Positions 43,401 through 62,203 of a stretch of 64,000 bases of DNA are shown piece after piece. The first letter of the stretch is position 1. Every line of letters begins with the position of its first letter. The notes beneath the pieces are model-generated. The model was not told the DNA's origin and made no database searches. It saw only the letters and a list, made by a program, of their open reading frames with translations. The position numbers and the translations under genes are program-made. Source of the stretch: Podarcis liolepis (taxonomy: Eukaryota); the NCBI GenBank assembly GCA_965112155.1, contig OZ218099.1. The stretch is one strand, 5' to 3'.

Positions 43401-44189
43401 CAGCTTACATACAAATAACAGCATAGGAAGCTGTAGGTCAGACTATTTGGCCCTGTATTGGCAAGTATTAGCTTTGTAGGTACGATTGCAGGCAGAACTC
43501 TGGACCATCATCGGCTGTTTGGTCCTTTGGAGATAAGAGATTGAACTTGGAACCTACAGCATGCAAAACATAAATTATACCACTTAAAGTCCCTGCTGCC
43601 CTTAGAACTGCAACCTTAAATGCTCCACTTTGTTTATGCAGTGCAAAGAGGAGATCCCTGCTCTCAACGTTTTTATTTTTATCATTATAATCAGGGTGAC
43701 AGCACTGGCATAGCATAGCCAGGATTTAGGGGGGGGGGAGGGAGGATCAATGTTTTGGGGGCAGAACTGAGCTATCTTTGATGTGTTTGGTCAGTTAGTT
43801 AAGCATTTTAATTTATTTACTTTATGGGGGGGCGCTGCCCACCTTGCCCATCTTTCACTACACCCAGGGGTGGCAGCTTCCTTGTGGCCTACTAAATGCT
43901 CATCATTGAAGACGTTTCTAATTTCTCTTAAGGCTAGGATTACTGTCCATGCAGTCAGAGGTAGCGTGTAAAGTCACATTTCTTTGCACTCAACCTCCCT
44001 TGAGTGACAACGACATACTTCGTCCTTGTGATCGGGTCAGGGGGATCCATCCATGCACCTCACTCAACAGAAGCACTGGCTAGCGATGCCTTAGTCAAAT
44101 GTGTTTTTGCCCCCTTTACATTCCCCCGATGGCTTCCCTTGGTGAGCCACCCTCCCCCTCCCGCACCTTAGCTGTCTGCACTAGGAGGG

Positions 44190-45120
44190 GTCCCTACTCT
44201 CTTCTTCCGAGCAGATGGTGCCTTGGCTGAGATCGGTCCCTCACTCCCTGCCCCGGGGGCTGCCAGGAGCCGGCTCCTCCTCTCTCTGGGCTAGCAGGTG
44301 TGTCTCCCGGCAACCCTCGGAGGGGCTTGCCACGGAGGCCATGCTTCCCTGCCACCTCCTCGGTCACACTGGTCTCTTTCGCAAGAGCCAGTAGGTAAGG
44401 CACGAGCTGCCCTTTCAAGGGTCTCTTCCCTCCCCCTCCCCCCTCCTTTCCACTTTCATGCTGCCGTTCCTGCTTCCTCCTTTCTTTCGGGTCAGAAGGA
44501 GGGTTTCTCCCGCTAGCTCTCCTAACGACAAGGTAACATTGCCCTCCAACTCCTCCGAGGGGAGGAGAGGAGCAGAGGCAAGGCTTGTACCCCCAAACAG
44601 ACGGCCCTCGTCTCCTCTTCCTGCCACCTTCAGGCTGCCTCCCCCCTCCCCATCTTGCAACCCCAGCGTAGTGGTGGGCGCTCTCTCCCGGCTCCCTTTT
44701 GCGGATCCCAGCCCCGCCGCCTTCCTGCTTGCATCCGGGGTTGCCGGCGCTGCAGATGCGCTCAGGGCCAGAAGCAGCCTCGGTTTTCTGCCAGATCCGG
44801 CGAGGAGGGCGCAGCCCGGCCCTGCGGTTGGCAAGAGCCACGTATAAGTTTGAAAGTCATGCCGCCCGTCGCCATGGCTAATCTTTGATCACCCTAACGC
44901 ACCGACAAAGGCGTGCTGGCATTTAAAGGAACCCTGGCCCTCGCAAGTTTCAAGCCGTCTGTTCAGCGACAGCACAGAGAGGCGTTAACCCTGGATAGGA
45001 TTCATAAGTAAATTGTTAAGCTGCCAACGGCGATTTCCGTCTTTGGTACGTATGTGCCAAACATGTGCCTTTTCGTGTTGCGGTAATAGATACATGCGGG
45101 GGGCATGAGAGGTCGGTCCA
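44190..45120. promoter_or_regulatory. Second CpG-rich block 1-2 kb upstream of the CPEB4 promoter
   Basis: GC/CpG-rich with no TIRs or TSDs. RFX-like GTCGCCATGGCTAA near 44868. Overlapping ORFs are low-complexity and unrecognisable. Confidence 0.5.
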
Positions 45121-45749
45121 TAAGGGAATGTTTGGTTAGCTGAAAAGTACGGTTATCACCAAATGGGACCAAACACGCCCACACAGCAAAGGAGGTGCCC
45201 TTTGGTTTTCTGTTGATGCAACATCTATAAGGACATAATTGGGTCTGGCCTGTTCTGTGGGTTCACAGAGCGCTCGCTGGTGCTTAGGCAAATCCTTTCT
45301 GTCTCATTTGGTTTGCACCTTCTTGCAGTAAAAATTGGCACCTGGAAGGGATCGACAGTCTCTCCCCGCAACGAGTCTTTTCTTCTTCACCCTTTCTCCA
45401 CTCTCCCCAAAGTCCCCGCAGGAGAGGAAGCTTAGTATTTCCAGCAAAATGACTTTTGTCGAGGTATTCTCAAGATCCTTGCAGTTTAAACTTCCTCATT
45501 GCCTCGAGCAGAGGCCGAAGGAGGAGAAACATGAACTGTCATGGAAGGCGAAACGTACAACATGTTCCTGTGGGGTGGCCTGAAATGAAAACTATTCTTT
45601 AAAAAAGCATTTTAAATAGCATTTTCTACCAATCTCACAACTTAAACTAGGGCCAACCTCTCTCTTAACTTCGATGCAGAGTTCTTCTTCGAATACGTGG
45701 TCGCCTATATATATTTAGGCGACCTATTCGAATAAACACTCTGCATCTA

Positions 45750-45868
45750 TATGTGCTGGAAATTAAACCTGCACCTGTCTCTTTCTCTCTCACACACATA
45801 CTTAATACATATATAAAGATATATAAATGCATATGTGTGTGTGATGCAGCTTTAATTTCCAGCACATA
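45750..45868. repeat. Inverted repeat (24-bp arms, 23/24 match) just upstream of the CPEB4 promoter
   Basis: TATGTGCTGGAAATTAAACCTGCA (45750-45773) versus TGCAGCTTTAATTTCCAGCACATA (45845-45868). Inner CACACACATA/TATGTGTGTG also pair. Confidence 0.85.
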
Positions 45869-45869
45869 A

Positions 45870-46271
45870 AACAAGCCAATCTTCAGTGAGCCCTTTAACC
45901 AATGATAAAACCTTAACATCTGCCATATTCAAAAATGGCTGTTTAAGCGAGGCCAACTATAATTTCACCTGTCACGGGAGTTTCCCCGACCTAAACCAAC
46001 ATGTCCGCCTTGGTTCGCTCTGAGGAAAAGAAAACTGCCCAAAACAAAGATGGCCACCGCGCCGAACAATTTCTGCCCTCATCCAAAAGGGCTGCCGACT
46101 CCCGCAGTCCCTCTTTTGGCTTAGGGAGAGGCGGCCTAGCGGCTGAGGAGAGGGAGGGGCGTGGCCGCTGCCAGGGAAGGGAGAGAGAGGGAGAGACGGG
46201 GGGGGGAGAAGAGGCGTGGCTTCTCTGAACCGGAAGTGCCGCGCTGCCTGTCTCCAGCTGGTTGTCATTTC
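45870..46271 (+). promoter_or_regulatory. CPEB4: Putative TATA-less CPEB4 promoter
   Basis: CCAAT at 45876 and 45899; YY1-like AAAATGGCTG (45932) and AAGATGGCC (46047); Sp/KLF GGGGCGTGGCC (46156) and GAGGCGTGGC (46211); ETS/GABP CCGGAAGTG (46230-46238); Inr match TCATTTC (46265-46271). The TSS is inferred, not observed. Confidence 0.72.
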
Positions 46272-46980
46272 GATCGGAGGCTCGGTCCTGTGGAGACGAC
46301 GACGACGACGGTGGCGGCGGCGGCGGCTGAGGCGGCCGGGCCGGAGTGGCGAACCGGCGGATCGACAGAGTAGCCCAGCGCCTCGTGACTAAACAGGAGC
46401 CCCCCCCGTCCTCCCGCCCGAGAAACAGTTGTGTTACATGAGGGGAAAAGAACGACGCCGGGAGGAGCCGAGGCGGAGGAGAAGCAGCCGCAGCCTCAGC
46501 AGCAGCCGCCGCAGCCCCGGAGCATCAGCAGCGGGAAGAAAGGCAGGACCCCTGGGAGCCGCCACCGCCGCCTCCCTCGCCGCCTCCTCCTCCACCCTCC
46601 GGAGCCAGGCTTGATATCGCCCCTCCCTGCTCTTTCGCCACCCAGCGATCCTCGTGACCCTCCCTCCCTTGAGAAACCGGCTCCCATGGGGGAGAGAGGA
46701 GCCCGGCCCCCCGCCAGCGCCATCCCCTCCCCGCCGGAGACTGCGCCCCTCCTGAGGTAAAAGTCCTTCTGCGGGGGTGGGGGTGAAATCCCTGCTCTCT
46801 TTCATCCCCCCCCCTTCCGAGGGAGCAAGGGCGGCATCAGCCCTATATTTTCCTCCTCACCTTCCCCCACCTTCGAAAGAGGTTCGTCTCTCTTCTCTCC
46901 AACCATCCCCCCCCCTTTCTAAATATTCTCAGTCCAAGGATCTGAGCCCGATCTCTCCCCCGCCCCCGCTGTCGCACAAT
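45970..46980. promoter_or_regulatory. CpG island over CPEB4 promoter and 5' leader
   Basis: Dense CpG and high GC against a CpG-depleted background. Includes (GAC)5-GGT-(GGC)5 at 46295-46327. Confidence 0.85.
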
Positions 46981-48041
46981 AAATTATTCTGCTGATGGCT
47001 TTAAAATGCCTAAACCCTGCTTGCCAGATATACTTATTTCAACCCTCCACCCCGCCCCCCCTCCAAACACTTGACTGCTGATTTTTCTGAGGTGAAAATT
47101 TTCCTCTGCAGGCAGCCAGGATTCATCTGAAGGACACACAAATATCGGATCATAATAGGAAGCGAGCTCGGAAAAGCAGCAACCAGGAACCCACCCAACC
47201 AGCGGCAGCAACAACAAGAATCCACCCTCCTCCTGCACAACTCAGTCCGTACACATACACACAACACGCAGTGAATGCAGATATCTAGAGATTAAAACAG
47301 GAACAAATCCTCGCACCCTCCCCTGCTTTATATGGAAAGGACTTGTCAGAAGGGCATCCGCATAGAGCATATTATACATATAGTCCTACAAGGCAAAGGC
47401 AGTAGCAGCACAGGTTGGGGGGGTGGGGAAAGCTCTCCTGTACAACTTGCTCCACCATTGAAATCTTGAGGTAAAAATTTCAGATTTTTAGCAGCAAAGA
47501 CTGTTAGAATAGAACACAGATATATATTAGATTATATAGAATTTATTAAATTATTCCAGATTTAAATATATTTTTGGAGCTGTGAAGGAGTGAGGAGCAC
47601 CAGATGTCATGGTATTGTTTCCATTAACGTGTACATGGGCAGGTTGAAGCGGCTGTTAAGGCAAAAAAGTTTTTTAAAAATCTTTTTAAAAAAGAATTCC
47701 CAGGAGCTTTCTTTCATCCCCACTTCATTCTTGTGCATTTCCTTTTAGAAAAAAAGGAAACCTCTTATTTTGTTAACCAAAGATTTACTTTCTATTCCTT
47801 CTGGATATTTGAAGGAAGTGAACACAAGTCTATCCATGTCAATATTTTAAGTGATCTCATTAATAAGATTCCCGGAATAATATCCAAATCAGATATCTCA
47901 AGTGGGTAGGTGGGAAAGAAGGGGGAGGTGAAAGATCTGTAGTAATTTTCAATTATCTTGCTTTAGTAGAAGAACAAAAACATTTTAAAGTTTTGTTTTG
48001 TTTTTTCTTTCCAGGCGGAATTAAAATCCTAAATAAAATAA
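46267..48041 (+). other. CPEB4: CPEB4 5' leader with 10 upstream ATGs and candidate 5'UTR intron(s)
   Basis: ATGs at 46438, 46686, 46995, 47006, 47275, 47332, 47604, 47609, 47635, 47836. Strong polypyrimidine tract plus CAG acceptor ending 48014. Donor-like GAG|GTAAAA at 46756/57 and 47470/71. Acceptor-like TTTTCCTCTGCAG ending 47111. Confidence 0.65.
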
Positions 48042-49166
48042 ATGGGGGATTACGGGTTTGGCGTGTTAGTGCAAAACAACACCGGGAATAAGTCAGCTTT
48101 TCCAGTCAGATTTCATCCACATCTGCAGCCTCCGCACCACCATCAAAATGCAACCCCCAGCCCCGCTGCTTTTATAAATAACACAGCTGCCAATGGCAGT
48201 AGTGCTGGGTCAGCTTGGCTCTTTCCTGCTCCAGCTGCCCATAACATTCAGGATGAGATTCTGGGGTCTGAAAAATCTAAAACTCAGCAACAGGAAAAGC
48301 AAGACTCCCTAGAAAAACAGCAACTTTCCCCTAGTCAAAGTCAGGAAGCAGGCATGCTGCCTGAATCAGAGAAATCTAAATCTGAAGAAAACCAGGGGGA
48401 TAATTCTTCCGAGAACGGCAATGGGAAGGAGAAAATAAGAATAGAATCGCCAGTGTTAACAGGATTTGATTATCAAGAGGCTACAGGGCTGGGTACTTCA
48501 AGCCAGCCCTTGACATCTACAGCATCTTCTCTGACTGGTTTCAGTAACTGGTCAGCAGCTATAGCTCCTTCTTCTTCAACAATAATCAATGAAGATGCGA
48601 GTTTCTTCCATCAGGGAGGGGTTCCTCCTGCTTCAGCTAATAATGGTGCTCTGCTGTTTCAGAATTTTCCACATCATGTCAGTCCTGGCTTTGGGGGTAG
48701 TTTTTCCCCTCAGATTGGACCCCTCTCTCAGCACCACCCTCATCACCCCCATTTTCAGCATCATCACAATCAGCATCAACAACAGAGAAGGTCTCCTGCA
48801 AGCCCTCATCCACCTCCATTTACGCATAGAAATGCTGCTTTTAATCAACTGCCTCATCTTGCTAATAATCTTAACAAACCACCTTCTCCATGGAGCAGCT
48901 ACCAAAGCCCATCACCTACACCGTCTTCTTCATGGAGTCCCGGTGGCGGTGGTGGATATGGTGGGTGGGGAGGGTCCCAAGGGCGAGACCATCGCAGGGG
49001 ACTGAATGGAGGAATCACACCCCTGAACTCCATCTCACCCCTGAAGAAGAATTTCCCAAGTAATCATATCCAGTTGCAGAAGTATGCACGGCCCAGCTCC
49101 GCTTTTGCTCCAAAATCTTGGATGGAAGACAGTTTGAACAGAGCTGACAATATCTTTCCTTTTCAG
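48042..49166 (+). CDS. CPEB4: CPEB4 first coding exon (375 codons; N-terminal low-complexity/His-rich domain of cytoplasmic polyadenylation element-binding protein 4)
   Basis: ORF MGDYGFGVLVQNNTGNKSAFPVRFHPHLQPPHHHQ...HHPHHPHFQHHHNQHQQQRRSPASP...SWMEDSLNRADNIFPFQ is recognisably the vertebrate CPEB4 N-terminus. It ends at donor CAG|GTGAGA (GT 49167-49168), 1125 nt, phase 0. Confidence 0.98.
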
Positions 49167-62121: not shown

Positions 62122-62203
62122 GATCGCACGAGAACTTTTGACATGCATTCACTGGAGAACTCGCTAATTGACATAATGAGAGCTGAAAGTGATTCACTGA
62201 AAG
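62122..62203 (+). CDS. CPEB4: CPEB4 coding exon 2 (82 nt, DRTRTFDMHSLENSLIDIMRAESDSLK-G)
   Basis: Acceptor TTTTACTTGCAG|GAT (AG 62120-62121) and donor AAG|GTAAAC. In frame with exon 1. Encodes the CPEB2/3/4 motif FDMHSLE.SLIDIMRAE. Too short for the ORF track. Confidence 0.96.

Follow-up and report, generated by a model that had tools for sequence, protein, structure and literature searches.

The upstream-ORF-rich leader of a lizard CPEB4 gene holds a fixed intron and an intron-like segment retained in RNA

The window, a 64,000-nucleotide stretch of Podarcis liolepis DNA, carries the 5′ end of a CPEB gene on its plus strand. In the frame that opens at 48042, residues 1–120 are 93–96% identical to reptile and bird CPEB4 proteins among the best matches, and the same start motif, without extension, is present in 118 of the 120 homologs listed (the best 120 of 204). 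The N-terminus and the start site agree with vertebrate CPEB4 and are distinct from CPEB1–3 of the same genome; judged by this homology, the frame is the start of CPEB4 and the gene is the CPEB4 ortholog. The genome contains four CEBP_ZZ (CPEB) loci, one of them downstream of the window on C2 and the paralogs at C9 74.5 Mb, C5 40.7 Mb and C15 44.3 Mb, and a genome search found no CPEB4 retrocopy that includes the leader. The gene is laid out as follows:

46157–46237, plus strand: two GC-box-like sites (46157 and 46212) and an ETS-like CCGGAAGT (46230), matched by motif pattern; putative promoter elements
46265–46271, plus strand: initiator-like element with +1 near 46267, the single YYANWYY match in 46000–46400
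46267–46756, plus strand: exon 1, non-coding, GC 0.70, covered 13–30x in both raw RNA runs and ending at the used donor
46757–47111, plus strand: intron, 355 nt, GT..AG, spliced in four of four RNA runs
47112–49166, plus strand: exon 2 in its observed form, with 930 nt of leader and the first 1,125 coding nucleotides, continuously covered over 47112–48090
48042–49166, plus strand: start of the CPEB4 coding region and its first segment, 375 codons, by homology
62122–62203, plus strand: predicted next CPEB4 coding exon, 82 nt, by motif match with AG and GT flanks, outside the read-aligned range

The end of exon 2 is placed from sequence only, at a predicted donor CAG/GTGAGA (49166/67).

RNA evidence came from four of 24 runs, aligned to 45700–48090: two raw stranded RNA-seq runs from one study (X23 and X24; 224 and 236 reads) and two contig sets (X1, 14.8x; X14, 44.1x); the single-cell runs X21 and X22 and 18 others were left out. 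Direct evidence is confined to these four, of which the raw runs were included on the strength of their species label. The raw reads represent two bulk samples, tissue not stated, in which nuclear and cytoplasmic RNA are not separable, and the organism they come from differs from the window at several sites. Reads resembling human DNA had been filtered out, which likely affects reads reaching deep into the coding sequence, and joints and loose ends were listed at a threshold of three reads per run.

The RNA is plus-strand and starts near 46260–46270: read depth climbs in the bin 46260–46339 and contig X1 begins at 46269. The surrounding DNA (46100–46800) is a CpG island, with a GC content of 0.69 and a CpG o/e of 0.75, and a few reads of one run lie upstream of the main start, at 46020–46179. 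A second GC-rich patch at 44001–45000 (GC 0.61, CpG o/e 0.56) contains donor-like sites at 44297/98, 44394/95 and 44532/33; this patch is possibly an alternative first exon or the promoter of another transcript.

Between 46267 and 48041 the DNA contains 10 upstream ATGs (uATGs), and the five upstream ORFs (uORFs) placed there by the original prediction (46438–46614, 46686–46760, 46995–47081, 47006–47074 and 47332–47469) have exactly those coordinates. Ten is a depletion: dinucleotide shuffles gave a mean of 20.0 (sd 3.4), and none of 1,000 had 10 or fewer. Counted in silico, the unspliced leader has 10 uATGs, the leader without 46757–47111 has eight, the leader without both this intron and 47471–48014 has four, and a leader with a long skip from 46756 to 48015 has two. 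With the first intron removed, the uORFs are:

46438–46614, plus strand: uORF of 58 aa in weak Kozak context, starting MRGK (ORF scan)
46686–47130, plus strand: intron-split uORF of 29 aa once spliced, starting MGER (sequence and RNA joint)
47275–47295, plus strand: uORF of 6 aa in weak context (ORF scan)
47332–47469, plus strand: uORF of 45 aa, its stop directly before the second donor (ORF scan)
47604–47627, 47609–47647, 47635–47748 and 47836–47850, plus strand: four uORFs in 47471–48014 (ORF scan)

The second of these runs to 47130 because splicing takes out its genomic stop at 46758–46760. The single strong-context uATG of the leader is at 47609; four adequate or weak uATGs lie downstream and upstream of it, and the main ATG itself has only adequate context. 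Of 25 read variants tested, none creates or destroys an ATG. In a GCC-rich run inside the first uORF (46558–46577), the reads carry a 6-base insertion and a 3-base deletion, with the frame kept. Three copies of the motif TGAGGT(A/G)AAA lie in the leader (46753, 47088 and 47467), and the rest of the window has none; every copy starts at or adjoining a uORF end or a splice site, and one stands 20 nt ahead of the used acceptor. Rfam returned three matches, all far below gathering scores.

The single joint listed in 45700–48090 connects 46756 to 47112 (28 reads in X23, 20 reads in X24, and contigs X1 and X14), and depth is 0 at 46820–47059 in all four runs (three 80-nt bins in the raw runs). On these 48 junction reads, retention of 46757–47111 has an upper bound of about 6%; in the samples read, this is a constitutive 5′ UTR intron and not one under regulated retention. 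From the joint and the zero inner depth it follows that the ATGs at 46995 and 47006 lie within the intron and are absent from the mRNA, and, with the intron not retained, the 10-uATG leader was not seen. The splice sites that had been predicted, namely donors at 46756/57 and 47470/71, an acceptor at 47111 and another 27 nt before the start codon, are all present. The two donors share the 9-mer GAG/GTAAAA, which is found in the window at these two sites only and is of middling quality, with 254 of 3,456 plus-strand GT sites fitting the donor consensus equally well or better. The used acceptor has pyrimidines at just 10 of 20 positions, yet it has two YTNAY branch-like motifs.

The original prediction had combined these sites into a possible three-state switch, in which unspliced (10 uATGs), cassette (four) and long-skip (two) forms toggle CPEB4 between inducible and constitutive translation. 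All four sites exist and two of them, donor 46756/57 and acceptor 47111, are used, so leader splicing itself holds; retention of the first intron, however, does not in the samples read, given the bound above. Removal of 46757–48014 does delete eight of the 10 uATGs in silico, but neither raw run lists the 46756–48015 joint, against 28 and 20 reads of 46756–47112. The modeled visibility of this long skip is at least 0.8, such that it would escape listing with a probability of at most 0.02 at 20% of donor use and of 0.25–0.41 at 10%, and contigs X1 and X14 both pass the first donor unbroken into 47112. In the two samples the skip probably accounts for less than about 20% of donor use and is minor or absent, and we consider the three-state switch highly improbable.

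The DNA at 46968–47175, comprising the end of this intron and the start of exon 2, has two diverged copies away from the CPEB loci, one on C6 (L002 1501–1696; 75% over 212) and one on C9 (L003 1501–1586; 77% over 87). Because they cross the splice site, these copies derive from DNA or from unspliced RNA. In the C6 copy, the exon part matches at 58 of 64 positions and the intron part at 102 of 128 (p = 0.065). The idea that the two matches are conserved elements of CPEB2 or CPEB3 was rejected, with the paralogs located at the positions given above.

The remaining two predicted splice sites enclose an intron-like segment directly upstream of the coding region:

47413–47428, plus strand: G-rich tract at the center of a coverage dip (depth 6 and 2 at 47412)
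47468–47476, plus strand: second donor (47470/71), sharing the 9-mer of the used donor; no use observed
47471–48014, plus strand: intron-like segment, 544 nt, GC 0.32, covered 6–20x throughout in both raw runs
47992–48014, plus strand: strong acceptor-like site (47991–48014 in the original prediction), ending 27 nt before ATG 48042; use not observed

Because 47471–48014 is covered throughout, the observed form of the leader is one of two exons and 1,420 nt, with eight uATGs. Contig X14 reads unbroken through 47470 to 47519 at 44x. Word shares, which like contigs tell presence and not level, are 0.60–0.69 in 13 of 14 RNA-like runs (12 of the 14 taken as RNA by guess only), above the ceiling of 0.52 for absence of both segments; the share of X14 (0.54) exceeds its own ceiling of 0.39, and that of X1 (0.69) is near the 0.72–0.73 expected if only the first intron is lost. 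The retained form of 47471–48014 is present in much of the RNA.

The acceptor at 48014 has pyrimidines at 18 of 20 positions, a level reached by 11 of 4,367 YAG sites on both strands, corresponding to a chance of about 0.3% per given 30 nt. However, it has no YTNAY branch motif within 60 nt, and because this acceptor is without a consensus branch motif we read the segment as a weak or vestigial intron. We therefore think it probable, with appreciable room for doubt, that the leader has a fixed 355-nt intron, that 47471–48014 is mostly left in and that the uORF load is largely fixed.

The coverage data also bear on a two-state leader, in which 47471–48014 is a partly retained intron and the spliced form is a substantial isoform in some tissue. 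Splicing would shorten the leader from 1,420 to 876 nt, reduce the uATGs from eight to four with loss of the strong-context one, and bring the 45-aa uORF's stop to 28 nt upstream of the main ATG. The AT-rich 544-nt segment is bordered by a top-ranked acceptor and by a donor identical to the used one, a pairing unlikely to arise by chance, and depth within the segment (47540–47779) is 0.44 and 0.45 of that in the upstream exon part (47140–47299) in the two raw runs, which come from one study. This ratio fits splicing in about half of the transcripts, but it also fits a bias in which AT-rich sequence depresses depth (GC 0.33 versus 0.47).

Neither raw run lists a joint or a loose end at 48015, at the threshold of three reads per run, although the junction test is weak here: the modeled visible share of a 47470–48015 joint ranges from 0.16 (151-nt reads) up to 0.72 (90-nt reads), under inferred models of loss to the G-tract and the filter. 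If 50% of transcripts were spliced, the joint would go unlisted with a probability of 0.48 at worst and of 0.004 at a visibility of 0.5. An assembler's unbroken contig through a donor suggests a minor spliced share, and the course of X14 across the second donor points to such a share in that sample. The missing branch motif likewise speaks against use of the acceptor. Of the three junctions that had been predicted, 46756–47112 is thus in all four runs and the other two are unlisted; the proposed cassette exon 47112–47470 keeps its intermediate load in silico (four uATGs), but its joint to 48015 was not seen. We regard a substantial spliced isoform in some tissue as somewhat unlikely, and one that is also regulated with an effect on translation as distinctly more so.

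In reads of organism A, a G at 47412 extends the G-tract to 47412–47428. A quadruplex at the leader G-tract is possible; the strict four-tract G3 motif does not occur in the window's own leader.

Splicing into 48015 might be expected to leave a trace in N-terminally extended CPEB4 models, and none was found among the 120 homologs listed (of 204); this says nothing about the leader, because two in-frame stops precede the ATG. The acceptor could also be unrelated to the 47470 donor, serving a tissue-specific upstream first exon (for example, in 44001–45000) or being a chance U-rich tract followed by AG. The three donor-like sites in the GC 0.61 patch would suit such an exon, and the layout exists in the family, with the CPEB3 paralog having an acceptor 11 nt before its ATG. 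On the other hand, neither raw run shows loose ends before 48015, with reads aligned from 45700 on, and the CPEB3 acceptor aligns to 48234, in the CPEB4 coding sequence, and not to 48014. We judge this explanation very unlikely.

The alignment of the CPEB3 acceptor (L009 6693–6717, G000:C5) to the acceptor-like site at 48234 covers 21 of 25 bases (window 48232–48256) and places the CPEB3 start at about CPEB4 residue 69; homology between the 48014 acceptor and the CPEB3 acceptor was rejected on this alignment. DNA upstream of the CPEB3 acceptor is weakly like CPEB4 47904–48150 (a score as high in 4 of 500 shuffles), and may be left over from an N-terminal coding stretch that was lost. The 5′ region of CPEB2 (L010, G000:C9 74570900–74577000, minus strand) likewise contains several acceptor-like sites within a long leader-like stretch. 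This region gave low-complexity matches only, and no frame with the start motif GDYGFG/DFGFG was found in it.

Returning to the leader that we favor, with its fixed intron and retained 47471–48014, eight of the 10 uATGs lie in RNA-covered sequence, and these eight uORFs would likely thin out scanning ribosomes and dampen CPEB4 translation. Because the main ATG lies at least 191 nt beyond the end of every one of the eight, it would be reached through leaky scanning and reinitiation and not by way of an ATF4-like overlapping uORF. In ATF4-type delayed reinitiation, the inhibitory uORF overlaps the main ORF. That type needs an out-of-frame uORF of this kind, whereas in all four forms of the CPEB4 leader the uORFs end at least 17 nt before the main ATG and none overlaps the main ORF. 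What the control inferred for CPEB4 shares with ATF4 (compare PMC5062967) is uORF control tied to eIF2 phosphorylation. The original prediction took mammalian CPEB4 to be gated by 5′ uORFs; this is stated for mouse, where Cpeb4 translation is triggered via 5′ uORFs on eIF2α phosphorylation (Maillo 2017, as cited in PMC11874964, PMC10152139 and PMC13048267). The gene is the same, and as far as these citing papers describe it both leaders are long and have several uORFs. By analogy, eIF2α phosphorylation would likely relieve the uORF restraint in the lizard as in mouse.

The original prediction took mammalian CPEB4 to be usually annotated with one long first exon. For human CPEB4, the supplement of PMC10032668 has three Ribo-seq ORFs, two of which begin MREK (c5riboseqorf123) and MGER (c5riboseqorf124). 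The human starts MREK and MGER are 179 nt apart; the lizard uORFs begin MRGK and then MGER, in the same order by eye, 248 nt apart. Based on this comparison with the supplement entries, the first two lizard uORF starts are likely equivalent to the human ones. In contrast, the human second ORF is a contiguous 162 bases in that supplement, whereas the lizard second uORF is broken by the 355-nt intron after 71 nt, and beyond their first residues the peptides are, by eye, unlike. Both human ORFs are labeled primate-young and have negative coding scores in the same supplement, which fits a case in which start positions are kept and peptides are unconstrained.

ATF5 has alternative leaders, in which one protein is served by two leaders that differ in uORF load. 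Regulated retention of a 5′ UTR intron in Arabidopsis ZIF2 (bioRxiv 10.64898/2026.02.12.705568) is a case that the two-state leader would resemble, with one protein and two uORF loads. In both ZIF2 and ATF5, both isoforms have been shown, whereas here only the retained form of 47471–48014 has been seen. Ordinary leader introns are GT-AG introns upstream of the start codon that alter leader length and uORF content (PMC5961209 and PMC13631847). Compared with these, 46757–47111 shows no essential difference, and 47471–48014 is unusual only in that it remains in the RNA and yet has strong sites. In these sources, introns in leaders, and leader isoforms with shifted uORF content, are well-known kinds. 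A search by title and the start of the abstract, with most subscription journals outside its reach, found no literature on CPEB4 leader splicing.

Overall, the locus presents an ordinary leader intron, at which splicing is observed, together with a modest two-state possibility. CPEB4 drives adaptation to chronic ER stress. A uORF load set by splicing would, if true, add a layer of control upstream of the uORF gate on CPEB4 synthesis reported for mouse. In the most far-reaching version, 47471–48014 would be a regulated rheostat: its removal from about half of the transcripts would take the uATGs from eight to four, the strong-context one among those lost, and would determine how strongly CPEB4 relies on the integrated stress response, and the positions of the first uATGs would have persisted since the amniote ancestor; this we regard as unlikely. 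For one reptile, the exon structure of the CPEB4 leader is now fixed, with two of its 10 ATGs intronic and one uORF split by an intron. In addition, sequence comparison with the catalog entries in the PMC10032668 supplement suggests that a reptile has counterparts of two uATG positions that are listed as primate-young in human.
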